From: Opitutales bacterium
GTDB lineage: Bacteria; Verrucomicrobiota; Verrucomicrobiia; Opitutales; T3Sed10-336
DNA length: 37,315 bases
Assembly (NCBI GenBank): GCA_007132315.1
Contig: SLOW01000286.1
Location: forward strand, 1-37,315
Reading direction: 5' to 3'
The translations under genes were made by a program, and so were the position numbers. This document shows positions 4,745 through 37,315 of this stretch, piece by piece; position 1 is the first letter of the stretch; the number at the start of each line of letters is the position of its first letter. Below the pieces are notes generated by a model. It searched no databases and had not been told where the DNA came from. It was given only the letters and a program-made list of their open reading frames with translations.

Positions 4745-4844
4745 ATTGGAACCACGGCGATGAGAGATGACTTGAAAGGGAAGCGGGGGTACCCGGTCCG
4801 CCCGCTCCGGAGTCCGGAAATCAACCTCAAAAACGAATCACAAG

Positions 4845-6485: not shown

Positions 6486-6636
6486 GGGAAAACCTGCTTG
6501 CCCTGTTTTCCGAGTAGGGAAAAACCTGAAAATTCCAACCCGTAAAGATTGATTTTGACCCGGAAAGTATTTCTGGGTAACAAGAGACTACTCTCGGTTC
6601 GTTTCCTCTTTGTATTACACAAATACCGTCCCCTTT

Positions 6637-7686: not shown

Positions 7687-7830
7687 TCGGCTTACGCCGG
7701 TTCGGCCGGCACGGCCGACGTGCCATCGCGTTGGGTTTCGGACGTTGTGGGCGATCCCGGAGCTCCGCTGTCGATTGGAACCCCGGGGTTTTTCAGTAAC
7801 CGCAACCACGACTCCCATTTGAGCGACGAC

Positions 7831-16309: not shown

Positions 16310-16340
16310 AAAGGACGGTTTTCATCCACTCGGAAAAACC

Positions 16341-18874: not shown

Positions 18875-18877
18875 TGT

Positions 18878-20287
18878 TCAAACTTTCTGCTGAATTTGGG
18901 GCAGGCTGGCGGCGGCGATCGCCTGACCGTGCCGCTTGATCTTTTCGTCAGGGATGTGAAAGGCGATGTTTTCCGACAGTTCGGGGAATTCGGCTTCAAG
19001 TACCGCTCGCGCTTCTTTAAGGATGCGGTCGCCTCCCGTGCCCGAGCTAACGCGGCCCAAAAAGAGGAGATTGCGGAAGTCGTAGAAATTCGCGTAGTGC
19101 GCGAGTGCGTGGCCGAAACAGGTTCCGATAGTCGAATAGACCGCGGCGGCGCGCTCGTCGCCCTGACTCATTTTATCTTGCAGAACCTCCAATTGTTCCG
19201 GCAGAGCGCACTGAGGATCGAATTGAATGCCGGACTCCGGCAAGAGGCGACCGACTCCCTGTTGAGAAAAATACTGTACGCCGCAACCGCGGTCACCGCT
19301 CCATTCGTCGATCGGAGCGTCTGTTCGATAATCAATCGGTGCGAAGGCCAGCTCATTGAGCCAACCAGTAATGTGGCCGTGCGGGTCAACGTAGCCCGCC
19401 GCGAGGCTGGTACCCATGGAAATGCCGAGGATCGCCCCTTGATTGATCGCGTGAGCGCCGACAAGAGCGGTGACGTCGCCGTCGTTGACGATCTCGAAAG
19501 GGATGTCATTCCATTCGCTTTGTAACTCTTGGAACAGCCCCCGAATGGAGCGGTCGAAATCCTCCTGGTTCAGTCCGCGAAAGAGCGATGAAACGCGTGG
19601 CTCGTTATCGATATAAATGCCGGCCGCGCTGCCGCCGATCGCGTCCACTCGGGGCAGGTGGCGGGCGGCGCGTTGAAGGGTGTCGCGGATGCCCGCGCGA
19701 TGATATTCCGGATCGGTTTCAAAGTACGGGTTCCACTTTACCTCCTCGGAGAAGACGAGTTTTCCGTCAATCAATGCGGCGCATTTGCGATCGCTTCCGC
19801 CAAGGTCGAAGCCGATGCGACAGCCATAGAGATGACGCTCTATGTTGGGAGGCGGTTTGCTGGTTGCGGGGTCTGCGATGGGTGGGGCTTCTGTTTCTTG
19901 TTCTACGAAAAAAGGCTCTCGGAAGCAGGTGTCGCCCAAAAAAGCTTCGTCGAAGGCACGGCTACCCGATCGGTGATAGGTTCGGCGCAGTTTCGCCGCG
20001 ATTTCCGGCGCGCCCGCGATGGTGACGCGGTTTCCGCCCCAGGCCCAGAGAAGCGTTTTGACGAGGCGTTCGCTGTAGCGTGCGTTTAATTCCCGGAACA
20101 TCGCTTCGTCGGGCAAAAGTCGGGTGGGAAAGGACCACGCGGATCCGTCCGGGCGGTGGATGGTGAAATGGGTCGGCCGTGTGCCTCGGTGGCTTTCCGT
20201 CATGGAACGGTAGCCGCGATTCCAAAGCGATGCGGGCAGGAACCCCGGGTCGAGTTCAGGGCGAATGAGTGGACCTATCTTGAGCAT
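18878..20287 (-). CDS. ROK-like/ASKHA sugar kinase with ~150-aa N-terminal extension (putative GlcN/GlcNAc kinase)
   Basis: ASKHA phosphate motifs are RIGFDLGGSDRK, VNDGDVTAL and GISMGTSLAAGYV. The classical ROK Cys-rich zinc motif is not seen. The gene sits between nagB-II and the deacetylase with 3-nt gaps. Confidence 0.65.
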   Translation of the reverse strand: MLKIGPLIRPELDPGFLPASLWNRGYRSMTESHRGTRPTHFTIHRPDGSAWSFPTRLLPDEAMFRELNARYSERLVKTLLWAWGGNRVTIAGAPEIAAKLRRTYHRSGSRAFDEAFLGDTCFREPFFVEQETEAPPIADPATSKPPPNIERHLYGCRIGFDLGGSDRKCAALIDGKLVFSEEVKWNPYFETDPEYHRAGIRDTLQRAARHLPRVDAIGGSAAGIYIDNEPRVSSLFRGLNQEDFDRSIRGLFQELQSEWNDIPFEIVNDGDVTALVGAHAINQGAILGISMGTSLAAGYVDPHGHITGWLNELAFAPIDYRTDAPIDEWSGDRGCGVQYFSQQGVGRLLPESGIQFDPQCALPEQLEVLQDKMSQGDERAAAVYSTIGTCFGHALAHYANFYDFRNLLFLGRVSSGTGGDRILKEARAVLEAEFPELSENIAFHIPDEKIKRHGQAIAAASLPQIQQKV

Positions 20288-20290
20288 GGG

Positions 20291-22237
20291 TTATCGGTTA
20301 ATGTCCAATCGTTTGAAGGCCTCGATGGCCTCGTATTCGGCGAGACCGAGAGCGTCATAGGCGGAGGCGGTGGCGCGGTTGAACTTGCTGGCCAGGTTCC
20401 AGGTATTGCCGTCACCATCCTTGCCGAGATTCGGTGACTGATTTCGCTGGGTTTGGTGCTGGTAAATTCCTTGAATCTTGTTTTCAAACTCGTCGGGCGA
20501 GAGCGGGACGGCCATGTCGATTTCATGGGTTTCCCATTCCATTCCCGGTCCCCGGTAGAGCCAGATGTGGCAATCGTTTACCCACGGTTCGGATTGGCTG
20601 GCGGCTAGAGCGCTCCGGAGAATCTCGAAGCAAAGGCCCGGAACGGAGAGAGGATCGTTTCCGAAACCGGTGGCAAAGATCTGGTGGGGGCGGATTTCGC
20701 GCAGAAGTTCAATCAGGCGTTCCACGTCGCTCTCGTCGGGTTGGAAGCTGCGGTAGCGGCCGTTCTCGTAAAAGGGGAGGTCGAGAAAACGGAGTCGCTT
20801 CGAATCGGTGTCGAGGAGGCGGGCTGACGAGCGGCTTTCGGTTCTCCGGATTAATCCTTTTAATTGTCGGATCTCGGCGGGGTCATCACCGAAATCTCCT
20901 TTCTCCCTGAGCTTGCGATCCAGCAGCCGGGCGAATTTCAGGTCATCCGCTGATTCCCGTTTTTCGCCCAATTCGAGCATTAGTTCAATTACGCGCCGGG
21001 CCTCACTGTCTGGCACGGCAAGGTTTCCGGAGGTTAAGTAGGCGACGGTCACATCGTTATTCTGATTGACCAGTCGGTGCAGCGTTCCGCCCATGCAGTA
21101 AATGTCGTCCAAGGGCTCGGGGCTGAGGATCAATGAACGTTTCGGAAACGGTTTTGCTCGTTCCGGGCGATGGCTGTCATCCGCGTTGGGTTTTCCTCCT
21201 GGCCATCCCGTGATGGTGTGCTGAGCGGTATTGAACATCTCGATATTAAGTTCGTAAGCGGAACCTTTTTCGGTCAACAGATCGGCCATACCATTTTCCG
21301 AATAATCCTCTTCGATCAGTTTCAGCAGAGGTTTTCCAGTTTTGCGGGAAAGCCAGAGTACGGCTTTCCGAATCATGGCCGGGCTCCACTCGACCATGCC
21401 GACCAGCCAGGGGTGACGAACGCGTGTCAAATGGCTCGCGGCGGCTTCGTCGATACAAAAGACGCAGTCTGGATGTTTCTGCAGGAAGCTGGCCGGGATC
21501 GCCTCTGTTTGCTGCCCCTCGACCGCTTGGGCGATGACTTCAGCTTTCGCTTCGCCCCAGGCGAGAAGAAAAATCTTGCGGGCGTTGAGGATTGTGGCGA
21601 CACCCATAGTGATCGCGTGGCGGGGAACATTTTTCTCTCCGAGGAAATCCCGGGCCGCATCCCTTCGCGTCAGGCTATCGAGAGTTATCAGCCGGGTGCG
21701 TGAATCCGGCGTGGAGCCGGGTTCGTTAAAACCGATGTGTCCAGTTCGTCCTATTCCGAGGATCTGGATGTCGATTCCGCCGGCTTCGGTGATTGCTTCT
21801 TCATAGGCGTGGCAGGAAGCGAGCACGTCTTCACGAGGTACGTCGCCGTCGGGCAGGTGGCAGTTTTCCGGTTTCAAATCGACCAGATTGAAAAGCTGCT
21901 CCTGCATGAAGCGCCGGTAGCTTTGCGGATGCTCGGGGATGAGCCCGTAATATTCGTCGAGATTGAAGATGATGACGTTTGCGAACGAGAGGCCTTCTTC
22001 GCGATGGCGCCGGATCAATTCCCGATAAAGCCGGACGGGAGTGGATCCGGTGGCCAGGCCAAGGACGGCCGGCTTTCCGGCGGCTTTTCGTGCCGTGATC
22101 AGTTCGCAGATAGCGTCCGCGACCCGGGCGCAAGCCTGGTCCGAGGAGGTGTAAATTGTGGTCGGAATATGTTCGCGCTGGGCGAATTCGAGATTCAAGA
22201 CCTGACGCATTTTGACAGTATGACAGATGCAACGCAT
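20291..22237 (-). CDS. nagB: long-form glucosamine-6-phosphate deaminase (NagB-II: NagB domain plus C-terminal LmbE-like domain)
   Basis: NagB blocks are LGLATGSTP, FNLDEYYGL and ILGIGRTGHIGFNEPGS. The C-terminal ~280 aa are LmbE-like but carry SPEPLDD in place of (A/P)HPDD. An alternative start is ATG 22210 (MRQVLNLEF). Confidence 0.8.
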   Translation of the reverse strand: MRCICHTVKMRQVLNLEFAQREHIPTTIYTSSDQACARVADAICELITARKAAGKPAVLGLATGSTPVRLYRELIRRHREEGLSFANVIIFNLDEYYGLIPEHPQSYRRFMQEQLFNLVDLKPENCHLPDGDVPREDVLASCHAYEEAITEAGGIDIQILGIGRTGHIGFNEPGSTPDSRTRLITLDSLTRRDAARDFLGEKNVPRHAITMGVATILNARKIFLLAWGEAKAEVIAQAVEGQQTEAIPASFLQKHPDCVFCIDEAAASHLTRVRHPWLVGMVEWSPAMIRKAVLWLSRKTGKPLLKLIEEDYSENGMADLLTEKGSAYELNIEMFNTAQHTITGWPGGKPNADDSHRPERAKPFPKRSLILSPEPLDDIYCMGGTLHRLVNQNNDVTVAYLTSGNLAVPDSEARRVIELMLELGEKRESADDLKFARLLDRKLREKGDFGDDPAEIRQLKGLIRRTESRSSARLLDTDSKRLRFLDLPFYENGRYRSFQPDESDVERLIELLREIRPHQIFATGFGNDPLSVPGLCFEILRSALAASQSEPWVNDCHIWLYRGPGMEWETHEIDMAVPLSPDEFENKIQGIYQHQTQRNQSPNLGKDGDGNTWNLASKFNRATASAYDALGLAEYEAIEAFKRLDINR

Positions 22238-23881: not shown

Positions 23882-25762
23882 ATGTCCTCCTTGCTTGAGC
23901 GAATCGCAATCTGTAGCTGGTCGCTGCAACCTGACAATGCCGAGGCCCTTTTCAACCAGGTAAGGTCAGCCGAAATTCCTCGGGTTCAGCTGGCTCTTGA
24001 CCCATTGCGACTGAATCCGCGCGGTTGGGATCGTTTCCTCGAACGCTGCAGGGACAACGAAATTGAGATCGTCTCGGGCATGTTCGTCACGGAGGGTGAG
24101 GATTATTCTTCCCTGGAGTCGATCCGTCGCACCGGGGGCATTGCTCCTCATGCCACCTGGGAGACGAACCTGAAGAACATTCGGGCGAACGCCGAAATCG
24201 CCGCCGCGCTGGGCTTGAAATTGGTGACCTTTCATGCGGGTTTCATGCCTCACGATCCGAGCGATCCTGATTTTGAAATTCTGATTGGACGAGTTCGGGA
24301 GGTGGCCGATGTTTTTGCTGCCAACGGAATTGAGATCGCCCTCGAAACAGGACAGGAGGAGGCCGAAACCCTCCGTCACTTTTTAAAGGAACTGGGCCGC
24401 GCCGCTGTTGGGGTCAATTTTGATCCGGCCAACATGCTGCTCTATGACAAGGGGGATCCGATCGCCGCGCTGCGCGTGCTGAGCCCGTGGTTGAAACAAT
24501 GCCACATCAAAGACGCGAAAAAAACCCGTCAGCCCGGCACCTGGGGCGAGGAGGTTCCGGTGGGCACCGGAGAGGTCGACTGGCCATCCTTTTTCGACAC
24601 GCTCAGCGAAGTCGGGTTTACCGGCTATTGCGCCATTGAGCGGGAGGCGGGGGAGGAGCGACCGAAGGATATTCGGACCGCGTGGGAATTCGTGGCTCCC
24701 CTGGTTGGCGGTGGGGGTGCGGTTATCCGCTCCACGTCACCTGTTCGGGTCGGGATTGTCGGTACCGGTTTCGTGGCGGCGACGCATATCAAAGCTTATC
24801 AAAGGCTGGAGGGCGCGAAAATCGTGGGGCTTTGCAACCCTAGCGGCCGTAACCTCGACGGAGATTTTTCAAACGTCACCGGAAACATCGGCTCATCGGA
24901 TCCGGTGCGTCTGGATATGGCGGGTGTTGAGGCCTATCGTGATTTTGAACGGATGCTGGCCAATCCTTCCATCGACCTTGTTGATGTTTGTTCGCCCACC
25001 AGTTCCCACGTCGCACAAACGATCGCTGCCCTTCAGGCGGGCAAGCATGTGCTTTGCGAAAAACCGATCGCCAGGAGCGCCGAGCAGGCCCGGACGATGG
25101 TTAAAGCCGCGAGCGAATCGGCCTCGTTCTTCATGCCCGGAATGTGCCTTCGTTTTTGGCCGGAATGGGCGTGGCTGAAGCGGACGGTCGCGGAGAATCG
25201 TTATGGAAAAGTATTGGCTGCCCGCTTCCGGCGCGTCGCCGAACCGCCGTGGTGGGGGCAAGCCAACTACCTTTACGGGAAACACTCTGGTGGGGCCTTG
25301 TTCGATCTGCACATCCATGATACCGACTTCGTCCAATACTGTTTTGGCAAACCGCTTTCCGTCTTTTCCAGCGGTTACTCTAAATTCAGTGGCGCGATCG
25401 ATCACCTCGTCACGCAATATACCATTCCCGGCGGCGGCTTGATTCATGCCGAGGGAGGGTGGGCCATGACCCCAGGCTTCGGCTTCAGCATGGCTTACAC
25501 GGTCAATTTCGAACGTGCTACTGCCGATTATGACATCACCCGAACGGAGGCTCCGCTTCGGCTTTTCGAAGAAGGTCAAGCGCCGCGTGATGTTCGATGT
25601 GGAAGCGACGACGCTTTTTTTCTGGAGCTTAAATCGTTCTTGGATTCGATCCGCTGCGGAAAAGCTTCCTCGACGGTCACTCCGGAGGACGGGGTTGTGA
25701 CCCTGGAGATTTGTGAAGCCGAAGAAGAATCGGTGCAATCCGGCCGGCCGGTGTCTCTTTAA
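23882..25762 (+). CDS. fusion protein: xylose-isomerase-like TIM barrel (N) plus Gfo/Idh/MocA oxidoreductase (C)
   Basis: 626 aa. The N-half carries TIM-barrel blocks (LVTFHAGF, IALETGQE, NFDPANM, CHIKD). The linker is LVGGGGAVIRSTSP. The C-half carries VRVGIVGTGFVAATH and AGKHVLCEKPIA. Confidence 0.8.
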   Translation: MSSLLERIAICSWSLQPDNAEALFNQVRSAEIPRVQLALDPLRLNPRGWDRFLERCRDNEIEIVSGMFVTEGEDYSSLESIRRTGGIAPHATWETNLKNIRANAEIAAALGLKLVTFHAGFMPHDPSDPDFEILIGRVREVADVFAANGIEIALETGQEEAETLRHFLKELGRAAVGVNFDPANMLLYDKGDPIAALRVLSPWLKQCHIKDAKKTRQPGTWGEEVPVGTGEVDWPSFFDTLSEVGFTGYCAIEREAGEERPKDIRTAWEFVAPLVGGGGAVIRSTSPVRVGIVGTGFVAATHIKAYQRLEGAKIVGLCNPSGRNLDGDFSNVTGNIGSSDPVRLDMAGVEAYRDFERMLANPSIDLVDVCSPTSSHVAQTIAALQAGKHVLCEKPIARSAEQARTMVKAASESASFFMPGMCLRFWPEWAWLKRTVAENRYGKVLAARFRRVAEPPWWGQANYLYGKHSGGALFDLHIHDTDFVQYCFGKPLSVFSSGYSKFSGAIDHLVTQYTIPGGGLIHAEGGWAMTPGFGFSMAYTVNFERATADYDITRTEAPLRLFEEGQAPRDVRCGSDDAFFLELKSFLDSIRCGKASSTVTPEDGVVTLEICEAEEESVQSGRPVSL

Positions 25763-25788
25763 AATCTTTTATTTCGATAAAATTCCTT

Positions 25789-27069
25789 ATGAAAACGACA
25801 GTTCGCATCCAGCTCTCCGTCATGATGTTTTTTCAGTTCTTCGTCTGGGGAGCCTGGTTCGTGACCATGGCCACCTACCTCAGTGAAATCGGTTTCAGCG
25901 GGGCGGAAGTCGGGCGGGCTTACAGCACTACGGCGATCGCGGCAATGATTTCACCGTTTTTTGTCGGCATGGTCGCCGATCGCTTTTTCGCGACCGAACG
26001 GGTCCTGGGGGTATTCCACATCCTCGGCGGATTGAGCCTTTTCTGGGCCTCCACGATCACCGATCCCGGCCTCTTTTTCTGGGTTCTGATCCTCCACACG
26101 ATTTTTTATATGCCGACGCTGGCGCTGGTCAACGCGCTCTCATTTCACCAGATGAAAGTTCCGGGCAAGGAATTTCCCCTGATTCGTGTTCTGGGCACGA
26201 TCGGTTGGATTGCCGCCGGCTGGATGATTGTCGCGCTCAGCACGCTCAGCGGGTCAAGTATCGAGGCGACCAACACCCCCCTTCAGCTTGCCGCCGGGTT
26301 CGCGATCCTCCTGGGCGTTTATTGCTTCTTCCTGCCTCACACGCCCCCGAAGGCCGCGGGCAGGAAGGTCACCGCTCGCGACGTGCTCGGGCTGGACGCC
26401 CTTGAATTGATGAAGGAACGTTCTTTCGCGGTCTTCGTGGTCAGTTCGCTTCTCATCTGCATTCCGCTGGCGTTTTACTACAATTGGACGAATCCGTTTC
26501 TCAATGACGCAGGGATGGAGAATCCCGCCGGGAAAATGACGCTCGGCCAGATCTCCGAGGTGCTCTTCCTGCTGGTGATGCCGTTCTTGTTTGTGCGTCT
26601 CGGCGTCAAAAAAATGCTGATGATCGGCATGGCGGCCTGGGTTCTTCGTTACGTGCTTTTTGCCTTTGGGAACAACGAGGCCCTCGTCTTCATGCTTTAT
26701 TCGGGAATTGTTCTGCATGGCATTTGCTACGATTTCTTCTTTATTGCCGGACAGATTTACGTGGACAAGAAGGCCCCCGTCCAGATGCGAGGCGCCGCCC
26801 AGGGATTTATCGCTTTTGTAACGCTCGGGGTCGGGATGTTTATCGGGTTCAATATTTCCGGATGGATTGTCGATCTCAATACGGCGAATGGCATGTATGA
26901 CTGGCGGTCGATCTGGCTGGTTCCATCGTTAATGGCTCTCGCAGTTTTGATCGGGTTCACCCTGATATTTAGAGAGAAAAGTGCGCTTAAAGAAGCAAAC
27001 ATTGATCCCGGCGAGATTCCCCCGCCGGCGGACCCGGCGCCCGCGGATCAAGGCGGGAGAAGTGATTAA
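25789..27069 (+). CDS. MFS transporter, nucleoside:H+ symporter (NupG/YegT-like) family
   Basis: N-terminal signature LSVMMFFQFFVWGAWFVTMATYL. About 12 hydrophobic segments. The start lies 26 nt after the fusion gene stop. Confidence 0.7.
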   Translation: MKTTVRIQLSVMMFFQFFVWGAWFVTMATYLSEIGFSGAEVGRAYSTTAIAAMISPFFVGMVADRFFATERVLGVFHILGGLSLFWASTITDPGLFFWVLILHTIFYMPTLALVNALSFHQMKVPGKEFPLIRVLGTIGWIAAGWMIVALSTLSGSSIEATNTPLQLAAGFAILLGVYCFFLPHTPPKAAGRKVTARDVLGLDALELMKERSFAVFVVSSLLICIPLAFYYNWTNPFLNDAGMENPAGKMTLGQISEVLFLLVMPFLFVRLGVKKMLMIGMAAWVLRYVLFAFGNNEALVFMLYSGIVLHGICYDFFFIAGQIYVDKKAPVQMRGAAQGFIAFVTLGVGMFIGFNISGWIVDLNTANGMYDWRSIWLVPSLMALAVLIGFTLIFREKSALKEANIDPGEIPPPADPAPADQGGRSD

Positions 27070-27108
27070 CTTGACTTGAATGTCTGAGGGTATATTCCAT
27101 ATTCACAT

Positions 27109-27897
27109 ATGAAAAAGCGACACGGCTTCTTTTTTACACGGTGTGTTCCGCGGATTAACTCCCTTGTCTTGGCGATTTCGGCCACCTCCGCGGCGGTGGC
27201 CGCCTTCGGTGATGATACGCCGGAGCGGGACGGCTGGATCACATTGTTCAATGGCGAAAACCTCGACGGATGGCGCGTTTCCGAGGCCGCCGCGCAGTCG
27301 TGGAGTGTGGTCGATGGCGTCATCGATTGTGACCCCAGGAGCACCGTTTCGGGCGAGCGGGATATTTGGAGCAAGGACGCTTTTGGCGATTTTATCCTCT
27401 ACGTCGAGTGGCGTCTCACCGATACCCCGACCGTCGAGACTCGGCCGTTGATAGCGCCTGATGGCGGGCATGTGAAGGATGAAGCTGGTAACGTGGTCAC
27501 GGAGACTTTTCCAAATGCTGATTCCGGGATTTACCTGCGGGGAATGTCGAAGGCGCAGGTTAATATCTGGAACTGGCCGATTGGGTCGGGGGAAGTCTGG
27601 GGGTACCGTACGGACGACAATATGCCTGCCGAAGTCCGCGCCGACGTAACACCACGTATCCGGGCCGACAAAGAGCCTGGCGAGTGGAATACTTTTGTAA
27701 TCACGATGGTTGGTGATCGCCTTTCGGTCTTGTTGAATGGCCAGATGGTGATCAATTATGCACAATTACCGGGTGTCGCAAAAGAAGGACCCATCGGCCT
27801 CCAGTACCACGGCGGATTTAATCACGAGACGGATGAATACGCCCCTGCTTCCAGCCTGGTGCAGTTTCGCAATCTATTCCTGAAAGCGTTGGATTGA
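27109..27897 (+). CDS. secreted DUF1080 (3-keto-disaccharide hydrolase family) protein
   Basis: A signal peptide is followed by GWITLFNGENLDGWRV, W.V.DGVI, FGDFILYVEWR, NSGIYLRG, GPIGLQYHG and VQFRNLFLK. These are typical DUF1080 landmarks. Confidence 0.75.
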   Translation: MKKRHGFFFTRCVPRINSLVLAISATSAAVAAFGDDTPERDGWITLFNGENLDGWRVSEAAAQSWSVVDGVIDCDPRSTVSGERDIWSKDAFGDFILYVEWRLTDTPTVETRPLIAPDGGHVKDEAGNVVTETFPNADSGIYLRGMSKAQVNIWNWPIGSGEVWGYRTDDNMPAEVRADVTPRIRADKEPGEWNTFVITMVGDRLSVLLNGQMVINYAQLPGVAKEGPIGLQYHGGFNHETDEYAPASSLVQFRNLFLKALD

Positions 27898-30424: not shown

Positions 30425-30539
30425 AATTAATCAATTCTAGTTTTACAATCAGGTGCACCTGTGAAACTGATGCCGTCCCCGCGGCCTATTAACTTTGCCG
30501 GATGTCGAGGCTGTCAATCCTTAACCGCTCATAATCAGG

Positions 30540-30985
30540 AGGGGGTCGGACGAAGTGTCGCAGACAAAGGATAACCACAACATGTTATCCTCGATTGATT
30601 TTATGTCCAGTATTGCTAAGCTGACTGGAGCGGAATTATCCGATTATGAAATCGACGGGGAAAAATCCGGGGTCTCATTCTTGGTTCTGATGGAGCGGTA
30701 AATCCTCATGACTGCTATTCAATCACCAGGATAGATCAATTCCAGGGGTTGATCAGTGGAGATGGAAAATGGAAATTGATGCTGCCGCACGAGTATCTCA
30801 GTGTGGTTTGGGGTGGCAGGGACGGAGAGCCCGGTACAAACCGTTAGGTTATGATCGACACAGCGCCATTCGATATGGTGCATGACCCCTATGAAAAAAT
30901 AAATGTCATCGATGAGTATCCGGATATCGCTGAACAAATGCTGCGGTATGCAGAAGAACATAGGTCGATCTTTTTCGATGAATAA
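30540..30985 (+). pseudogene. sulfatase C-terminal remnant (frameshift plus in-frame stops)
   Basis: One frame reads SSIDFMSSIAKLTGAELSDYEIDGEKSGVSFLVLMER*. After a frameshift it reads GDGKWKLMLPHEYLSVVWGGRDGEPGTNR*VMIDTAPFDMVHDPYEKINVIDEYPDIAEQMLRYAEEHRSIFFDE*. These match the typical sulfatase C-terminal blocks D..PT...L.G...P....DG.S and L(Y/F)D...DP.E..N. Confidence 0.6.
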
Positions 30986-31278
30986 TACATTGCGTCCCCA
31001 CGAGTTCAAGTCGACTGTTTTAGAAATGAATGCGACAATGGTGCAATCCGACCCACAAAGAGGTTCGTTGGTGCCGAACGCACGTGTCGTGACCTGCCCT
31101 TGAGGCCGCCCTATGTCACAATATGGGGGACCTTCCCGAACCGGGAACTACCCACGAATTTTTCTGAGGAGGCAAAATTTTTAAGGATAAGGACTAACCC
31201 GACGGATTGGGTCGTTATCATTCATAGCGGGGGAACGAGATTGGGTTGGGTTCGCATAGAGTGAACTCGTGAAGGAGT

Positions 31279-31893
31279 TTACATCTTCGGCATGATCCGG
31301 GCCATGTCGTCGTGAGGGCGGGCGATAACGTGGGCGGCGATCAGTTTGCCGAGTGTGCTGACCGCCTGCGCGCCGGCGTCGATCGCGGCTTTGACCGCCG
31401 CCACGTCTCCCTCGATGATGATGGTGACGTAGGCCGCCCCGATCTTTTCTTTGCCGATGAGGCGGACATCGGCGGTTTTGAGCATGGTGTCGGTGGCTTC
31501 GAGGATGGCGGCGAGGCCCTGGGTTTCAAGGATGCCGATTGCTTTGTTGTTTGTTTTCATAGGTGAAGGATCGGGGCGAATTTCGTCGCGTCCCCCGTAA
31601 AGAGCGTTGATGGTCACTGGGCCTGAGTTTAATTGATCGATCCCGGGGGCGAGAGAGGGGAGGAGCGTCGCGACGGGTTCGACCCCCATCCGTTGAGCCT
31701 CGCTGACGCCGACCGCAATGGCTGAATTCAGATCGGCCGGTCCGCTTCCTTGTAATCGGATGAGCACACGTTCGTCCCCGATCGGCTCGAGGCCGAGCAA
31801 GGTGACGTCCGCGGCTTTAAGCATCAACTCGGTCACCATCATAGTGATGGAGAAGAATGGCACTTCGACGAGCGCTATGCTGGCTGTTTTCAC
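31279..31893 (-). CDS. tandem BMC-domain shell protein (BMC-T-like; divergent domain 1, canonical domain 2)
   Basis: Domain 2 (nt 31294-31545) reads AIGILETQGLAAILEATDTMLKTADVRLIGKEKIGAAYVTIIIEGDVAAVKAAIDAGAQAVSTLGKLIAAHVIARPHDD, a close match to the PduA/EutM/CcmK pattern. Domain 1 (nt 31630-31884) reads SIALVEVPFFSITMMVTELMLKAADVTLLGLEPIGDERVLIRLQG. The GTG start overlaps the aldolase stop (TAGTG). The protein has no Cys. Confidence 0.85.
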   Translation of the reverse strand: MKTASIALVEVPFFSITMMVTELMLKAADVTLLGLEPIGDERVLIRLQGSGPADLNSAIAVGVSEAQRMGVEPVATLLPSLAPGIDQLNSGPVTINALYGGRDEIRPDPSPMKTNNKAIGILETQGLAAILEATDTMLKTADVRLIGKEKIGAAYVTIIIEGDVAAVKAAIDAGAQAVSTLGKLIAAHVIARPHDDMARIMPKM

Positions 31894-32915
31894 TACTTGG
31901 GAAGGCGGCTATGGACAACATCGCGAACGATTGATTCGACACGGGCGCGCCATGCGTCAGAAAATTTCGGGTCTCCTTCAGCGGAGTGGACGGTGCAATG
32001 TTTCGCGGCTTCGGGAAATCCGCATTCTGTTAAGACGCAGGCGATGCGGGAGCGAACAACGTCCATCAATTCCAATTCCGCCGGGGCGAGCGGGAACCGG
32101 GCTCGCCCGGTGTCGAACCCCCTGAGCTGATATCCGGCCCGAAAACCTTCGGGGAAATTCGGGGCGTTGACCATCAAGGAAAAGAGATCGAGCAGTTTAA
32201 ACTGCACGTGCCTGGCTGAGTCCCAGTTTCCGCCGACGGTTTCGTGATAAATTTTCATGATGACCTCCGGGACGATTCCCGCGCTGGAGAGCGTGCCGCC
32301 GTCGCCGCCCATGAAGAGGGAGGCGCAGAGGAGTTCCTCCCACCCGATGAGCACTGAAAAATCGGGACGTTGCGGTTTGATCTCATGCAGGACTTGTTGA
32401 AAGCGAGGCATGTCCCGCGAGGTGTCCTTCGTACCGATGATTCGCGGGCAATCGAGCGCCAGGCGTTTGAGGACGGGAACGCTGATCTCGTTGGCGAAGG
32501 CAGGAATATTGTAGATGACAATATCAATCGGAGATTTCGCGGCCAGTTCTCGGAAATAGGTTTCGATGCTCTCCTGGGTCAGTTTGTAGTAATAAGGACC
32601 GGTGATGGATACCGCTCGACATCCGAGGCCGGCGCAGTAGCGGCACATTTCTAGAACGAGGTCGACGTTTGGTTCCGCCGCCCCTGCAAGGATCGGCCGG
32701 CCTCCCGCTTCTTCGGTGACGATTTTGAGGACCCGCTTGCGTTCCTCGTAAGACAGGCGAATGAACTCGCCCATGCTGCCGTTCGGATAGAATCCGGTAA
32801 CCCCTTTGTCGCCAAGCCAACGGATGATGCGGCGAAGTTCCTCTTCGTTGATCCGTCCCTGGTCATCGTAGGGGACGATGTTCGGTACAAAGATTCCTTG
32901 TAATTGACCGGGCAT
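31893..32915 (-). CDS. DHDPS/N-acetylneuraminate-lyase-family class I aldolase with C-terminal extension
   Basis: Family blocks are GFYPNGSMGEF (variant of GTTGE), IVIYNIP and IIGTKDTS (Schiff-base Lys). At 340 aa it runs ~40 aa beyond the usual family length. Confidence 0.8.
   Translation of the reverse strand: MPGQLQGIFVPNIVPYDDQGRINEEELRRIIRWLGDKGVTGFYPNGSMGEFIRLSYEERKRVLKIVTEEAGGRPILAGAAEPNVDLVLEMCRYCAGLGCRAVSITGPYYYKLTQESIETYFRELAAKSPIDIVIYNIPAFANEISVPVLKRLALDCPRIIGTKDTSRDMPRFQQVLHEIKPQRPDFSVLIGWEELLCASLFMGGDGGTLSSAGIVPEVIMKIYHETVGGNWDSARHVQFKLLDLFSLMVNAPNFPEGFRAGYQLRGFDTGRARFPLAPAELELMDVVRSRIACVLTECGFPEAAKHCTVHSAEGDPKFSDAWRARVESIVRDVVHSRLPK
31896..31955 (-). other. putative BMC encapsulation peptide (C-terminal amphipathic helix of the aldolase)
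   Basis: AWRARVESIVRDVVHSRLPK has hydrophobic residues at i, i+4, i+7, i+8, i+11, i+12 and i+16. It is preceded by a linker, ECGFPEAAKHCTVHSAEGDPKFSD. The pattern resembles known encapsulation peptides such as the PduD/PduP N-termini. Confidence 0.5.
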
Positions 32916-32947
32916 GGTGAGAAGCGAAGGTTTTGTCGGAATACGAT

Positions 32948-33790
32948 TCAGGATGTTGGGTCCAAAGAGTAAATACGCCGGGCGTTCCGAGCATAGATTT
33001 TATCCCGGTTCTCCGCGCTCTCCTCCGCGAATATTTCATGAGTGACCTTGACCCATTGGTTCAGTGAGGCGGTCAAATTGCAAACAGGCCAGTCGCCTCC
33101 CCAGACGAGGCGGTCCCAGCCAAAACAATCCACCGCATGTTCGACCCACGGGCGGATCGTTTCGGTTGTAACCGCATCCGGAGGAGAATATGCAGGCAGC
33201 CCCGAGACTTTACAGATAACATTGGGACGGCTCGAGATATCCCGAAGCGAATCGTGCCATGGATCGCGTGCTTCCCCTGCGATGTCGGGCACGCCGCAAT
33301 GGTCGAGAATGAACGAAACATTCGGGCAGGAATCGACCAATTCCGCGGCGATTGTAAGCTGTGCGGGAAGCACGCAAAGGTCGAAGGTTAGGCCGCGCGC
33401 GGCGAGCCGGGCGATGTTTTGCCGGAAACTCGGTAAACGGGAAAGCTCATCCGGCTGGGTGTGGAGAACCCGTCGGATTCCTTTCACCGCAGGGTGATGG
33501 ATTGTATCCAGGTGCGTTTCGAAATCGTCATTTTCCGGACGGGCGGAGGCGATCACCCCGAGTAGCTTGTTGGCCGGATTCTCGGCCATTCGAGAAAAGA
33601 ACCGGGCCTCATCAATCGACTGGGCCCGGTCGACGTCGACCTCCATAAATAAGGTTCCCTCGATATCGAGGCCGGCGGAGGCGTTGCGGTATTCGTCCAG
33701 ACGGAAATTACCTTGCAGAGGAGACAGATTTTCCGTCCAAGGATACTGGAAACGACCCGGGTAGAGGAGATGTTGGTGAGTATCGATCAT
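32948..33790 (-). CDS. amidohydrolase-2 (COG3618-type) sugar lactonase-like protein
   Basis: MIDTHQHLL carries the HxH metal motif at the N-terminus. Other blocks are ILDHCG and VWGGDWP. This matches the pattern of the family that includes L-fucono-1,5-lactonase. Confidence 0.7.
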   Translation of the reverse strand: MIDTHQHLLYPGRFQYPWTENLSPLQGNFRLDEYRNASAGLDIEGTLFMEVDVDRAQSIDEARFFSRMAENPANKLLGVIASARPENDDFETHLDTIHHPAVKGIRRVLHTQPDELSRLPSFRQNIARLAARGLTFDLCVLPAQLTIAAELVDSCPNVSFILDHCGVPDIAGEARDPWHDSLRDISSRPNVICKVSGLPAYSPPDAVTTETIRPWVEHAVDCFGWDRLVWGGDWPVCNLTASLNQWVKVTHEIFAEESAENRDKIYARNARRIYSLDPTS

Positions 33791-33792
33791 AG

Positions 33793-34131
33793 TCAGTCAG
33801 AGTGAAAAACTTCTTCCATTTCCGCCCACCATTCGCCAGGTAAGCGATCGGGGAGGGGGGTCTGGCATGGCTTGCATACTTCCCACCATTCCAGGGTTTT
33901 GGGATCGGCCGCCATCTTGGCCGCGTCTGCCTCGAAGTCGTTCCCAGTGTATTCAAAATAACTAAACAGGTAGTAATTTCCGTCGGGAAGTTTTCGCAAA
34001 TAGATCGAGTAGTTGCGGATGTTGCACTTGTCGATCATCTGCAGGACCTCCGGCCAGACCGCGGCGTGGAGACGTTTGTATTCTTCGATTTTTTCCGGTT
34101 TAAGACCGATTACACTTCCGTAACGCTTCAT
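33793..34131 (-). CDS. rhaM: L-rhamnose mutarotase family protein
   Basis: 112 aa. MKRYGSVIGLKPEKIEEYKRLHAAVWPEVL..IRNYSIYL..LFSYFEY..WW..C is co-linear with the YiiL/RhaM pattern. Confidence 0.8.
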   Translation of the reverse strand: MKRYGSVIGLKPEKIEEYKRLHAAVWPEVLQMIDKCNIRNYSIYLRKLPDGNYYLFSYFEYTGNDFEADAAKMAADPKTLEWWEVCKPCQTPLPDRLPGEWWAEMEEVFHSD

Positions 34132-34146
34132 CGTAATATCCAGGGT

Positions 34147-34674
34147 TCAGGTTTCTTTGTCAGGTACTTCAGCTTCAAAGGCCGCCGGGTTGCGATACTT
34201 GACGGTCTGAAGGTGTTCACAATATAGGGCCAGATCGCCTTCATTCTTAAAGATCTCGTAGCTGGCGCGATAGAGTCCCATTTCCTTATATTTGGGAGAT
34301 TTCTCCAAGTCGGTTTTGATGGTGTAGACCGTGTCGCCGATGAAGACAGGTTTGATAAATCGAAGCTTGTCGTAGCCATAACTGAAGGCGTTCACGCAAT
34401 TGGTGGCGACCAGGCCGAGCCCGACACTGAACACCATCGCTCCGGCGATCAGTCGCCTGCCGAAGAGGCCATCTTCGCGGGCGAAGATTTCGTCGGCCAC
34501 ATACGGATGCATATCGAGGACCAAGGCGTTGAATTGCATCGATTCCCCCTCACCCAGCGTGCGGCGTATTGAACGAATCCTTCGGCCAATCTGGATATCC
34601 TCGTAATACCAGTCTTCGGCGTTCCAAACAGGAATCTCCTTATGTTTGACTGGATCCGGATTGGGATTCTTCAC
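34147..34674 (-). CDS. MaoC-like hot-dog protein lacking the catalytic His (probable non-catalytic partner)
   Basis: The hydratase-2 motif position reads LDMHPYV, so Asp is kept and His is replaced by Val. It shares the block [20 protein letters not shown] with the second MaoC. The GTG start overlaps the CoA-transferase stop (GTGA). Confidence 0.7.
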
Positions 34675-35837
34675 AAGTGAAACTCTTTCTCTACGGATTG
34701 GTTGTGTTGTCCGATGGAGGGTGCGCCTCGGGTGGATTTATAAATGTTGCCGTCGATCCGAATGGGACAGCGAAGCGTTTTCAACGGCGTTCCACCAGAA
34801 CACAAGATTTCCTGTTCCATGTCAAGCGCGCGATAACCCTCGGTTGCCCGCAATACTTTCCAATTCATGACCTCCGCGCACCAAATGTCGGCCGGTTCGA
34901 GGACCGCCAGCCATTCGGTAGTTGTTTTGCTCTTTAGATGATTGCGCAGGATCCCCTTGATCTCATCACGGCGGGTGAACCAACTCTTGGGTTCGGTAAA
35001 CGATTCCAGCGGGGGGCAATCGAGCAGTTTCCCCAAATGAGTCACTGCGCCCATGGCCAAGGCGAGATGCCCGTCGGCGGTGGCGTAGATGCCATAAGGC
35101 GCTCCGAGATAGGCGTGGCCGTTATTCACCGCGCTCCGGCGGGCGGGTTGTTCCCCATCGTTCAAATGGGTGGTGATGACTTCGAACTGCAGGTCGAGGA
35201 TCGACTCCAGCAGGCTCACCTCCACGCGTGCTCCTCTTCCGGATATGCCGCGTCGAACCAGACAGGCGAGGATTCCCTCGACCAGGTGTGCGCTGGCGGC
35301 AAGGTCGGCGACGGCGAGACCCACCGGGACGGGCGGATCGTCCATGTTGCCTGAAAGCCAGCAAAGTCCCGATATCGACTGGGCGAGGAGATCCTGGCCG
35401 GGTTTGGCCGCCCAGGGGCCGTCCGGTCCATAACCGGTCACGGTGCCGAAGATCAGGCGCGGATTGATGCGCGCCACGGTATCGTAATCAAGGCCGAGCT
35501 TTCGCATGACTCCAGGGCGAAAGTTTTCGATCAGGACATCGGCACTTTCAATCAATTTCCGCACTTTCGCCAAATCATCGGCGTCTTTGAGGTCGGCTGC
35601 GAAACCTTCTTTATTGCGATTGATGGAATGAAATAGGGTGCTATCTCCTTCGACCCCCAGATTCGAGATATAGAGCTGGCGGCAGATGTCCCCGCCTCGG
35701 GGCCGCTCGATTTTAATCACCCGCGCACCTAGGTCGGCCAGTCGCATCGCGGCGGCGGGCCCGGCCAGAAATTGGGAAAAATCGAGAACGAGCAGGCCGT
35801 GCAGCGGTTTGTCGGAGGAGTCTGAAGCATTTACCAT
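34671..35837 (-). CDS. family III (CaiB/BaiF) CoA-transferase
   Basis: Blocks: [78 protein letters not shown]. Confidence 0.85.
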
Positions 35838-35866
35838 AACGAGGGAGCGAGTGAGATTGTGTCGGT

Positions 35867-36334
35867 TCAGGTTTGAAGTTCGGGGCTGGACTCCGGTTCG
35901 CGCCGGTTGACCAGCAGGAGGTGTTCACAGGCGAGGACGATTTCATCTCTCTGATTGAAGACCTCGACCAGTTCGCTGACCACTCCTTGCGCGGGTCGCT
36001 TATGCGGACGCTTCTCCTTGACCGCCACCCGGACTCGGATGGTATCACCAATAAAGACCGGCTTGATAAAGCGAAGGCGATCGTAACCGTAGGAAAAGGC
36101 TTCGGCGTTGATCGCACCGGCTGTCATTCCGATGGCGACGCTGAATATCAGTGTGCCGTGGGCGATTCTCTGGTGGAACTCCTGGGTCTTGCACCATTCC
36201 GCATCCATGTGATGCGGATAAAAGTCACCGGTCTGTCCGGCGTGCATGACGATGTCGGTTTCGGTAATGGTTCGTCCGCCGGTTTGGCGGACATGTCCGA
36301 TTTCGTACTCTTCAAAATAGATATTTGTGAACAT
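35867..36334 (-). CDS. MaoC-like (R)-specific enoyl-CoA hydratase/dehydratase (catalytic Asp/His present)
   Basis: The hydratase-2 motif reads [12 protein letters not shown]. It shares the block [20 protein letters not shown] with the first MaoC. Confidence 0.75.
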
Positions 36335-36344
36335 GAGTGGGAAG

Positions 36345-37315
36345 TCAGGTATTGCCCGTCAGGCATTTTTGAAACAAACGATTCAATTCGCGCGCGGTGT
36401 CGGACGGTCTCGTGTGTCCGGCTACGCATGCGTGCGCGATCTGAGTCCCGGCGTCCTGAAAGGCCATGTATCCCGGAAACTGCGGACGCAAGAGAGCGAC
36501 ATCAAGAGTCGGGAGGGTTTCCCGGAAGAAGTTCATGCTGGCCGTATTCACCAATGAATCCGTCCAGGCGCTACGGTGACCCGGCTGGCCGCCCGCTTCA
36601 AAATAGATTCCTTTTTGGATTTCCGGACTTGCGGAGAAGGCGGCATAATCCATCGCGGTCCGTGGGTGCTTCGTCATCGCGGATACGGCAAGTCCGGCTC
36701 CACCCAAGGTGGAGCGAAGGGGGGAGTTCCCATAGGTAATCAATCCCCCCGCCTGCAACGGATGCTTGGTGTAACGCGGTCTTGAGTAATTCGAATAGCC
36801 GTAAGCGAACGGACAATAGGCGGCCCGTGGATCGTCGTCGGCAGTCGACATCCATTCGGCGGTGCGGATCGGGTTGCGCTCCAGGCAGGCCGGATCGCAA
36901 TGGGAAACCAATTCCCGCAAAGCCTCGAGAGCCTGAGATAACGCATCCTCCTCGGCCACCTGTTCCCCGTCGAAAACGCGGCCACCCACGGCTTCGCTGA
37001 ACATATAGGCGTGCATCAGGATATCGATCGGAAACGCCGAGACCGTGACAAATCCCCCTTTTGCGAGAGCGAGCAGATCATCCCAATTTTCGGGAAGTTT
37101 CAGAGCGTAACGTTCGATTAAATCGGGCCTCCAGGTCGCGATCGGGGCGGCTGCATCGGTTGCAAGCGTCCATTGCCGGTCCTTGAAACGGTAACTCGGA
37201 TGGGAGCGCCCGACGGAGTTTGCGGCCTGGTCCGCCAGGAATTCGCCTGACACCCAATCCTCGTAGGGAAGGAGAAGCCCTTCGGTCGCGGCCAACGCGG
37301 TATGCGGATGATCCA
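36345..37315 (-). CDS. family-1 extracellular solute-binding-protein-like protein (N-terminus outside the window)
   Basis: The frame stays open to the window edge (..[20 protein letters not shown]..), so the TTG at 37295 in the ORF track is not necessarily the start. Blocks such as [30 protein letters not shown] resemble SBP_bac_1 proteins. Confidence 0.55.

Follow-up and report, generated by a model that had tools for sequence, protein, structure and literature searches.

A tailed class I aldolase and its BMC-T shell protein, the predicted cargo and tile at the end of a Verrucomicrobial operon probably for L-fucose- or L-rhamnose-type sugars

In route 1 of non-phosphorylating L-fucose degradation, the sugar passes through the mutarotase FucM, the dehydrogenase FucA, the lactonase FucB, the dehydratase FucC and the L-KDF (2-keto-3-deoxy-L-fuconate) aldolase FucH, and an analogous route serves L-rhamnose. 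Non-phosphorylating routes have two alternative endings: an aldolase splits the keto-deoxy acid into pyruvate and L-lactaldehyde, or the acid is oxidised and hydrolysed to pyruvate and L-lactate (PMC11199699). The same two sugars are degraded in the PVM bacterial microcompartment (BMC). As signature enzyme it has a class II aldolase (PF00596) that acts on fuculose- or rhamnulose-1-phosphate and also has a C-terminal encapsulation peptide (PMC4594438), and its toxic intermediate, lactaldehyde, is converted to lactyl-CoA, lactyl-phosphate and lactate, or to 1,2-propanediol (PMC8857213). Here we describe one end of contig SLOW01000286.1 from an Opitutales bacterium (37,315 nt; the whole stretch, which is the entire contig, is called the window), where a class I aldolase of the DHDPS family with a C-terminal tail is encoded directly ahead of a BMC-T shell protein. 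In the reading that we favor and consider probable, these genes belong to the distal part of an operon conserved in Verrucomicrobiota, through which L-fucose- or L-rhamnose-type 6-deoxyhexoses are degraded oxidatively and without phosphorylation, with the aldolase as microcompartment cargo.

Eight co-directional genes occupy the minus strand from 31279 to the contig end, and the 5' part of the operon beyond it was placed through synteny alone. The initial annotation had listed eight packed genes in the order given below, with gaps of -4 to 32 nt and the BMC-T gene last. The open reading frame (ORF) list and Pfam agree with it on every domain, two BMC domains being found in the last protein, and the measured distances in gene order are 10, 29, -4, 15, 2, 32 and -1 nt. 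The features are as follows.

36345 to beyond 37315, minus strand: protein resembling a solute-binding protein (SBP-like), a cytoplasmic periplasmic-binding-protein fold (Pfam SBP_bac_1/8, weak, 29 bits; about 60 5' codons cut off)
35867-36334, minus strand: MaoC1, single hot-dog protein of the (R)-hydratase/dehydratase type (Pfam MaoC, 85 bits; catalytic motif)
34671-35837, minus strand: family III (CaiB/BaiF/Frc-type) CoA-transferase (Pfam CoA_transf_3 over its full length, 326 bits)
34147-34674, minus strand: MaoC2, hot-dog protein without the catalytic His (Pfam MaoC, 42 bits)
33793-34131, minus strand: RhaM-family 6-deoxyhexose mutarotase (Pfam rhaM, 114 bits; recurs in the cluster)
32948-33790, minus strand: Amidohydro_2 sugar lactonase of the L-fucono-/L-rhamnono-lactonase type (Pfam, 160 bits)
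31893-32915, minus strand: DHDPS/NAL-family class I pyruvate aldolase, whole gene (Pfam DHDPS, 173 bits)
31995-32915, minus strand: aldolase TIM-barrel body, residues 1-307 (Pfam DHDPS; invariant catalytic residues)
31959-31994, minus strand: aldolase disordered linker, residues 308-319 (variable alignment columns; AlphaFold2 (AF2) pLDDT)
31905-31958, minus strand: aldolase C-terminal amphipathic helix, residues 320-337, DAWRARVESIVRDVVHSR, a predicted BMC encapsulation peptide
31279-31893, minus strand: BMC-T shell protein with two PF00936 domains (Pfam BMC twice, 122 bits)

Dozens of unrelated contigs have these genes in this order, so the arrangement is not due to chance. A scan anchored on the CoA-transferase yielded 80 genome loci, which were mapped by tblastn and de novo ORF clustering; locus counts per gene family are given among 85 transferase-anchored loci, window included, and a well-flanked subset comprises 35 transferase-anchored loci with at least 8 kb on each side. 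An aldolase-anchored scan yielded 80 metagenomic loci, 55 of them with at least 700 nt downstream, and the related loci number about 170 overall. The closest homologs of the transferase and the aldolase (79-84% identity) all come from metagenome-assembled genomes of Verrucomicrobiota, labeled Chthoniobacter, Akkermansiaceae, subdivision 6 and Opitutales. The CoA-transferase has no exact match on record, and a second contig (14.6 kb) with an identical aldolase stops even earlier upstream. Promoter and terminator scans gave counts equal to shuffle expectation, and Rfam and tRNA scans of the window gave no matches.

The evidence for a cargo role begins with the aldolase itself. This protein has 340 residues, and its Pfam DHDPS match stops at residue 288. 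The catalytic residues of class I DHDPS/NAL enzymes are in place, with K163, Y135 and GSMGE invariant among the orthologs, and among PDB entries the KD(P)G aldolase 4UXD is closest in sequence, with YagE next. An AF2 model based on a 36-sequence alignment (mean pLDDT 81.7) comprises a TIM barrel, a low-confidence or disordered stretch at residues 307-319 (pLDDT <50 at residues 311-315) and a helix at 320-337. Superposing the barrel on N-acetylneuraminate lyases, KD(P)G aldolase, YagE and DHDPS gave target-normalised TM values of 0.82-0.90. Since the chains of these solved relatives are just 283-304 residues long, they have no counterpart of the tail. The predicted activity, assigned from gene context, is that of a 2-keto-3-deoxy-L-fuconate/-rhamnonate aldolase.

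An alignment of eight orthologs revealed a body with 81% mean column identity, then a variable linker and then a conserved terminal segment. A tail with the pattern hydrophobic-x-x-hydrophobic-hydrophobic-x-x-hydrophobic-hydrophobic was present in 108 of 110 database orthologs chosen by a GFxEAA anchor, with the motif V-E-x-I-V-R-x-V-[MLVI] and the consensus V-E-A-I-V-R-x-V-[MLVI]-x-x-L. As a control, 547 C-termini of other proteins encoded in these loci were screened and 23 had the loose motif, whereas the strict motif occurred in 0 of 3557 control windows of 45 residues. An exhaustive search of cluster representatives found a similar tail in one further group alone, at 54% identity; among these representatives, out-groups at 47% identity or less lack the tail and have a median length of 304 residues. 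The tail-free homologs, out-groups and solved relatives together, measure about 290-318 aa.

The N-termini of EutC and EutE are encapsulation peptides in experimental use. We translated the Escherichia coli K-12 eut genes to obtain them (MDQKQIEEIVRSVMASMGQ for EutC and MNQQDIEQVVKAVLLKM for EutE), and the tail of the window aldolase, RVESIVRDVVHSRL, and that of an ortholog from locus L040, SIEEIVREVVRQ, proved near-identical to EutC residues 6-14, IEEIVRSVM. The aldolase tail is hydrophobic at positions 1-4-5-8-9, with a hydrophobic moment of 0.67-0.71 versus 0.79 for EutC and 0.61 for EutE. In common with EutC, EutE and PduP-type peptides, it is a helix of about 18 residues with this 1, 4, 5, 8, 9 spacing, it follows a poorly conserved linker and it is absent from non-compartment homologs. 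Unlike the Eut and Pdu peptides, it is C-terminal and sits on a DHDPS-family enzyme, a carrier not listed in the 2015 survey of encapsulation peptides. Such peptides have been defined as amphipathic helices of 15-20 residues joined by a poorly conserved linker and missing from non-compartment homologs (PMC4594438). Because the aldolase tail combines a predicted amphipathic helix, a variable linker and absence from out-group homologs, it fits this definition, and we predict from sequence and model that it is a BMC encapsulation peptide. Instead, the helix might serve this aldolase subfamily in oligomerisation or regulation, and the neighboring BMC-T would then do something unrelated. That explanation can draw on amphipathic helices being common, on the loose motif being found in about 4% of other C-termini and on the tail having been judged from sequence and a model. 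We consider it very unlikely, given that the strict motif was missing from every control window, that the tail is near-identical to the EutC peptide, that the linker is disordered in the AF2 model and that the linkage to a shell gene is obligate both ways.

That shell gene encodes a standard, non-permuted tandem of two PF00936 domains, which Pfam reports as two stretches. The protein aligns twice to the tandem BMC-H fusion 6NER, and its second domain is colinear with PduA residues 9-98. Among 50 orthologs, domain 2 is canonical and PduA-like, with KEKIGAAYVT and ARPHDD conserved; domain 1 has diverged and shows, where the pore lies, a conserved G-[ND]-E loop; and an inter-domain LYGGRD is conserved. 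The window protein is without cysteine, as are 28 of the 50 orthologs, and it is therefore not a PduT-type Fe-S tile. Assignment to the PduT type was rejected on the missing pore cysteine and on a score of 47.6 bits against the eut_PduT model (cut-off 250). Assignment to CcmO was rejected as well (115.5 bits versus a cut-off of 270; no carboxysome genes are present). The public gene call (186 aa) starts 18 codons too late and omits 31840-31893. A GTG start at 31893 restores an N-terminal strand, ALxxIE.PF, that is conserved in the 50 orthologs, and with this start the TAG stop of the aldolase and the GTG of the BMC-T overlap by one base, a shared G.

The BMC-T gene nearly always comes next after the aldolase gene, 0-9 nt away. 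Among the transferase-anchored loci that have an aldolase gene, the BMC-T gene lies directly 3' of it in 7. In at least 41 of the 55 aldolase-anchored loci with sufficient downstream sequence it is the next gene after the aldolase, with a spacing of -4 to +30 nt. When BMC-T homologs served as anchors, an aldolase lay 4-9 nt upstream in 3 of 3 cases, and in 2 of these 3 the aldolase/BMC-T pair stood alone amid unrelated housekeeping genes. The constant unit of the aldolase-anchored loci is lactonase-aldolase-BMC-T. A second BMC-domain gene within 10 kb was found in none of 63 loci. The longer contigs with the cassette include one of 2.06 Mb (L067) and one of 955 kb from Akkermansiaceae (L174, GCA_024233115.1). 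In the 35 well-flanked loci, BMC-T never occurred without the aldolase and never with the lactate-forming branch of a short-chain dehydrogenase/reductase (SDR) and a fumarylacetoacetate hydrolase (FAH) alone; BMC-T tracks the aldehyde-forming enzyme. Its orthologs are 46-62% identical and have been kept over large distances. The aldolase and BMC-T thus look like a fixed two-gene satellite cassette of cargo plus tile. The locus has a single shell gene, BMC-T, an insufficient shell-gene complement in the sense of the satellite-locus criterion (Axen 2014).

We then compared this cassette with the PVM microcompartment, with which it shares the phylum, the sugars L-fucose and L-rhamnose, and the toxic intermediate lactaldehyde. 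The PVM aldolase is a class II enzyme for sugar phosphates, whereas that of the window is a class I, DHDPS-family enzyme predicted to act on a non-phosphorylated keto-deoxy acid. The PVM shell as described in published catalogs is built from two BMC-H along with three BMC-P proteins and no BMC-T, whereas the window aldolase is paired with a BMC-T and encoded apart from other shell genes. The class II aldolase PF00596, BMC-H, the BMC-P triplet, aldehyde dehydrogenase and PTAC are all missing from the 37-kb contig and from the 10 kb around each cassette; the locus can be no more than a satellite of a PVM-type compartment. No description of an aldolase/BMC-T cassette was found in published BMC catalogs, and the 2021 catalog mentions PF00701 just as a gene near MUF2 loci. 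One alternative dispenses with a full microcompartment: BMC-T would form sheets, tubes or a minimal scaffold that binds the aldolase, or the pair would be a relic after organelle loss. The consistent separation of the pair from other shell genes, often alone among unrelated genes, would suit this explanation. We nevertheless judge it quite unlikely, since domain 2 keeps the tiling edge motifs KEKIG and ARPHDD, the pair has persisted at BMC-T identities of 46-62%, an aldehyde-forming enzyme is a typical signature cargo and PVM compartments for the same sugars are widespread in the phylum (PMC8217296, PMC5615132, PMC8857213).

The sugar pathway assigned to the operon follows from its neighbors in the related loci. 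The usual order of the conserved cluster is IclR, GFO/IDH/MocA (GFO), SBP-like, MaoC1, CoA-transferase, (RhaT), MaoC2, RhaM and lactonase, and its 3' end comes in two versions, SDR plus FAH hydrolase (leading to lactate) or DHDPS aldolase (leading to lactaldehyde). The SBP-like gene was present in 81 loci, a MaoC gene in 76, a GFO/IDH/MocA oxidoreductase in 71, a RhaT-type L-rhamnose/H+ symporter in 51, a divergent IclR regulator in 49, the Amidohydro_2 lactonase in 48, an SDR in 34, RhaM in 26, an FAH-family protein in 20, a FucD-like MR_MLE dehydratase in 13, the DHDPS aldolase in 11 and BMC-T in 7 loci plus the window. Glycosidases of families GH95, GH29 and GH78 (GH29/GH95 fucosidases, GH78 rhamnosidase) adjoin several related loci, and further partners are SDR plus FucD-like MR_MLE, a UxaA-type dehydratase, and SDR plus FAH hydrolase. 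These neighbors fit the proposal of the initial annotation that the mutarotase, lactonase and keto-deoxy-acid aldolase are steps of the oxidative L-rhamnose/L-fucose route. One recurrent ORF 3' of the transferase (our cluster 18) was discarded as an Arg-rich, out-of-frame shadow of the RhaT gene.

As in route 1 of fucose degradation, genes for a mutarotase, a lactonase (Amidohydro_2) and a keto-deoxy-acid aldolase (class I) stand together in the window, in a cluster of fucose/rhamnose genes. Related loci with FucD-like or UxaA-type dehydratases and SDR dehydrogenases also resemble known fucose routes, the SDR plus FAH end corresponding to route 3. In contrast to route 1, the window aldolase ends in an encapsulation-type tail and comes with a shell protein of its own, the expected dehydrogenase is of the GFO/IDH/MocA type, and the operon holds a CoA-transferase, two MaoC proteins and a cytoplasmic binding-protein fold with no linked classical dehydratase. 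The top NCBIfam match of the amidohydrolase is L-fucono-1,5-lactonase (123 bits versus a cut-off of 400) and its best PDB match is 4DLF (62 bits); it is similar at the family level to L-fucono-1,5-lactonase, not an equivalog as judged from these scores. The lactonase gene lies directly upstream of the aldolase in most aldolase-anchored loci.

In the nearest syntenic relatives (L005, L006, L009, L010, L015, L019, L020) a GFO/IDH/MocA gene, preceded by a divergent IclR, lies upstream of the SBP-like gene. In L005 a URO-D gene is inserted between the two, and in the other six they are directly adjacent. A GFO/IDH/MocA gene and a divergent IclR are thus most probably located beyond position 37315. 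The initial annotation had suggested that both the dehydrogenase and the acid-sugar dehydratase may lie there: the syntenic relatives uphold the former, but a classical dehydratase is not to be expected just upstream, because 28 of the 35 well-flanked relatives are without one. Clusters that lack a dehydratase occur, for example, in Oleiharenicola sp. Vm1 (NZ_CP180537.1), O. lentus and Pelagicoccus sp. SDUM812005. Against the PDB, the GFO dehydrogenase gave distant, uninformative matches alone.

The substrate might also be another sugar of related configuration (D-arabinose, L-galactose, or a methylated or modified sugar), the aldehyde then being glycolaldehyde or glyceraldehyde. Titles cited in PMC11199699 describe UxaA-family/FucD-type dehydratases as promiscuous toward D-arabinonate, L-galactonate and L-fuconate, and URO-D, or Meth_synt_2 plus PurU, in some loci hints at O-methyl sugars; moreover, no equivalog score for the favored sugars was reached. 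The RhaM, RhaT, GH29, GH95 and GH78 neighbors indicate fucose or rhamnose, however, and the known compartment of the phylum handles lactaldehyde (PMC4207490), so that another sugar seems distinctly improbable. As for the inserted genes themselves, a URO-D-family gene stands between the GFO and SBP-like genes in L003, L005, L029 and L088, and L086 (6209-9139) has PurU (formyl-THF deformylase), a Meth_synt_2 protein and an epimerase inserted in the cluster; the PurU, Meth_synt_2 and URO-D inserts may provide a demethylation step for O-methylated deoxy sugars.

The remaining genes of the operon, namely the SBP-like, CoA-transferase, MaoC1 and MaoC2 genes, make up a CoA module. This module and the GFO dehydrogenase are the most conserved part of the cluster, not an appendage. 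The initial annotation had read the SBP-like protein as a solute-binding protein with an ABC permease upstream, and this did not hold. About 80 orthologs start with M-x(2-6)-LRGIAWNHTRGF and lack both a signal peptide and a lipobox, and in the transferase-anchored loci the neighboring genes include no recurrent ABC permease or ATPase family. Since it has neither a signal peptide nor ABC partners, we place this protein in the cytoplasm and rule out a transport role. Its full length is about 383 aa, its PDB similarity is weak and to sugar-binding proteins, and its gene adjoins the CoA-transferase in 81 of 85 loci, overlapping or abutting the transferase or MaoC1 gene (translational coupling). 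The transferase matches PF02515 over residues 12-379 (326 bits), as expected of family III, and in alignments the catalytic Asp of E. coli Frc and YfdE corresponds to its invariant Asp178. Transferase orthologs with 59-80% identity occur in Verrucomicrobiota, Chloroflexota, Acidobacteriota, Bacteroidota and Rhizobiaceae; the enzymes closest to it in NCBIfam and the PDB are succinate-glutarate, oxalate, mesaconate and formyl-CoA transferases, and no operon protein, the transferase included, reaches any NCBIfam equivalog cut-off.

MaoC1 carries the hydratase-2 motif DxxPxH (GDFYPHH) in 74 of 75 orthologs. The corresponding site of MaoC2 reads LDMHPYV, and DxxPxH occurs in 0 of 50 MaoC2 orthologs although MaoC2 is otherwise very conserved; MaoC1 is therefore the sole catalytic candidate of the two. 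Judged from these motifs, the proteins are probably a catalytic/non-catalytic hot-dog pair, with MaoC2 as the partner of MaoC1. The MaoC2 gene shares 4 nt with the end of the CoA-transferase gene. For MaoC1, a protein of about 65% identity is PDB 4FFU, there labeled just 'oxidase', which we take to be the Sinorhizobium meliloti pSymB MaoC1 homolog. Long transferase matches (546-674 aa) were considered as Rosetta-stone fusions with MaoC or the binding protein and rejected, for these database entries are two transferase paralogs joined. The tandem transferase duplication occurs in Bacteroidota, Acidobacteriota and Pullulanibacillus (L077, L079, L081-L083; P0002, P0003, P0005, P0096) and suggests a heteromeric transferase in those lineages. 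On a Rufibacter plasmid (L173, 8841-13637) the binding-protein-fold gene is duplicated too.

In the aldolase-anchored loci, three alternative modules precede lactonase-aldolase-BMC-T: (a) SDR together with a FucD-like MR_MLE, in some loci also RhaM; (b) an RraA-like protein, a SAF/UxaA-type dehydratase and SDR; and (c) the version found in the window, GFO and the CoA module. Both (a) and (b) include a dehydrogenase as well as a dehydratase. In 28 of the 35 well-flanked loci, which have the dehydrogenase, lactonase, symporter and end steps, an MR_MLE or UxaA gene is absent. This pattern of replacement points to the CoA genes being linked to the dehydration step, upstream in the pathway. Because dehydration is the one missing step and the leftover genes encode a CoA-transferase and a dehydratase-type protein, we propose a CoA-dependent dehydration. 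Within module (b), the RraA-like protein is always 5' of the SAF/UxaA-type dehydratase (L088, L091, L097, L100, L106); in L135 an RraA-like protein without UxaA lies between MaoC2 and the lactonase.

CoA-transferase-dehydratase cycles operate in CaiB/CaiD (carnitine) and FldA/HadA. As in those systems, the window has a family III transferase gene beside a dehydratase, which would permit an ATP-free shuttle of CoA from substrate to product. Unlike in those systems, the partner is a MaoC hot-dog pair and not a crotonase or radical dehydratase, an extra subunit with a cytoplasmic binding-protein fold is present, and the proposed sugar-acid substrate is without precedent in what we found. By analogy, the CoA module might dehydrate the aldonate via a CoA thioester, a tentative suggestion and the least certain step of the pathway.

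A different role follows the lines of the initial annotation: the sugar pathway would be cytosolic, the CoA trio would process a C3-C5 acid such as lactate as a CoA thioester and the SBP-like protein would be part of an upstream ABC importer. Family III transferases do usually act on small (di)carboxylic or hydroxy acids, as the nearest relatives of the window enzyme illustrate, and the classical pathway of Sinorhizobium is complete without CoA genes. MaoC-type enzymes, however, dehydrate 3-hydroxyacyl thioesters, and lactoyl-CoA is a 2-hydroxyacyl thioester; dehydration of lactoyl-CoA by MaoC was rejected since its hydroxyl is in the wrong position for this enzyme class. The importer component fails for want of a signal peptide and ABC partners. 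Moreover, the CoA module is bound to the first enzyme, GFO, and not to the end steps; it is present with both the lactate and the lactaldehyde branches; and it can stand alone beside a rhamnosidase with no end-step gene. For these last three reasons in particular, a role in C3-C5 acid processing is the less likely one, and we rate it as unlikely overall.

Under the reading that we favor, fucose or rhamnose anomers released by glycosidases would be interconverted by RhaM, and the GFO/IDH/MocA dehydrogenase, placed by synteny beyond the contig end, would oxidise the sugar to the lactone, which the Amidohydro_2 lactonase would open to the aldonic acid. The aldonic acid would then become 2-keto-3-deoxy-6-deoxyhexonate through the CoA module or an unlinked dehydratase. 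In the former case, the transferase would make aldonyl-CoA, MaoC1/MaoC2 would eliminate the 3-hydroxyl to give a 2-keto-3-deoxyacyl-CoA, and CoA would be passed to the next aldonate with release of the keto-deoxy acid, in the manner of CaiB/CaiD. Inside the microcompartment, the tailed class I aldolase would cleave the keto-deoxy acid to pyruvate and L-lactaldehyde, with BMC-T as a docking site for the tail, a pore for the C6 keto-acid and pyruvate, or both. Pyruvate would exit the compartment, and lactaldehyde would be used by core enzymes of a compartment encoded elsewhere, presumably of the PVM type common in the phylum. Of all this, the gene content, synteny, conserved tail and cassette linkage are observations, and the substrates, encapsulation, the part played by BMC-T, the host compartment and the CoA chemistry are deduced from them.

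Several observations weigh against this picture. For the compartment, no other BMC gene is present in the 37-kb contig, and the host compartment is inferred from literature on the phylum (PMC8217296, PMC5615132); moreover, encapsulation peptides are defined by their properties, and targeting is here predicted from sequence and model. For the substrate, the identity of the sugar is drawn from gene context, all NCBIfam equivalog scores being below cut-off. For the CoA module, a search for aldonyl-CoA terms gave no literature match. Several loci have a classical dehydratase and the CoA module, which could mean that two sugars are degraded in parallel or that the module has a different role. Many Opitutaceae-type loci have only one MaoC, and in genomes without a local dehydratase one could be encoded elsewhere.

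A fucose-type cluster on S. meliloti pSymB bears on the same question. It runs lactonase, IclR, ABC importer, MR_MLE, RhaM, GFO, MaoC1 ortholog, SDR, FAH and second MR_MLE, and it shares the lactonase, IclR, RhaM, GFO and MaoC1 orthologs with our cluster at 45-65% identity (its MaoC1 homolog is 64% identical to that of the window). It differs in having a true ABC importer and two MR_MLE proteins and in lacking MaoC2, aldolase and BMC-T. Its MaoC1 ortholog is located near 751.8 kb of NC_003078 / NC_020560, and the transferase/binding-protein pair near 731.3 kb. Since the GFO and MaoC1 ortholog are here paired with two MR_MLE proteins, with the transferase/binding-protein pair 20 kb off, this cluster argues against the CoA module simply replacing the classical dehydratase. 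The Sinorhizobium cluster, the loci with both dehydratase types and the loci with a single MaoC are the reasons why we keep the CoA-dependent dehydration at the tentative level given above. The broader combination, a portable tailed-aldolase/BMC-T cassette together with a CoA-dependent aldonate dehydratase that replaces enolase-superfamily and UxaA types in many Verrucomicrobiota, Chloroflexota, Acidobacteriota and Bacteroidota, is more doubtful still. Literature searches with the Sinorhizobium locus tags gave no matches, and the GapMind papers contain nothing on the CoA module. In a pSymB-like replicon of S. medicae (L172, 7906-11276), the transferase/binding-protein pair comes right after an IS110 transposase and beside capsule (kps/rkp) genes, again 20 kb from the fucose-type cluster with the GFO and MaoC1 orthologs.

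The remainder of the 37-kb window contains PVC-typical genes and no further shell gene. A spacer of about 850 nt (30425-31278) separates BMC-T from a DUF6807 gene; its G+C content is about 0.50 versus 0.56-0.60, and it holds short ORFs only, such as 30719-31009 (96 aa), with no Rfam family or convincing terminator. Encoded at 23882-27897 are a 626-aa protein in which a xylose-isomerase-like TIM barrel is fused to GFO/IDH/MocA, a major facilitator of the nucleoside:H+ symporter family and a 3-keto-disaccharide hydrolase (DUF1080), and at 15281-17189 another GFO/IDH/MocA and AP_endonuc_2 pair. Together these look like a sugar oxidation set of the 3-keto-glycoside type. Signalling genes cluster at 3137-11238, where a Ser/Thr kinase of 1172 aa that bears a WD40 propeller is accompanied by an FHA-domain protein, a PP2C phosphatase and a PD40 beta-propeller. 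At 18017-22237 are a PIG-L deacetylase, a 469-aa ORF without a Pfam match and a 648-aa fusion of a glucosamine-6-P isomerase/6-phosphogluconolactonase-like domain with PIG-L. Two large ORFs, 125-3079 (984 aa) and 11970-14180 (736 aa), have no Pfam match, and a GH43-like protein is also present.

Taken singly, the sugar pathway, the encapsulation peptides and the satellite shell genes are already known. New relative to the literature we found are a class I DHDPS-family aldolase as predicted compartment cargo, which would tie the non-phosphorylative route to a microcompartment; the obligate cassette of cargo plus BMC-T; and a pan-phylum module of CoA-transferase, MaoC and cytoplasmic binding protein in deoxy-sugar clusters. 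Knowing what the CoA module does would fill a hole in a pathway that is widely regarded as understood, and it might reveal CoA-thioester chemistry on sugar acids, which, if true, would be the first such case among the literature found. Among the major degraders of algal polysaccharides rich in fucose and rhamnose are the Verrucomicrobiota, whose microcompartment is thought to make lactaldehyde-forming catabolism tolerable. If our reading is true, the cassette would be a natural, compact case of cargo and tile exchanged together, useful for compartment engineering, and metagenome surveys that seek the class II aldolase alone would undercount compartment use. Compartments would then take up a second, chemically different signature enzyme that brings its own shell tile, so that one compartment would serve two pathways.

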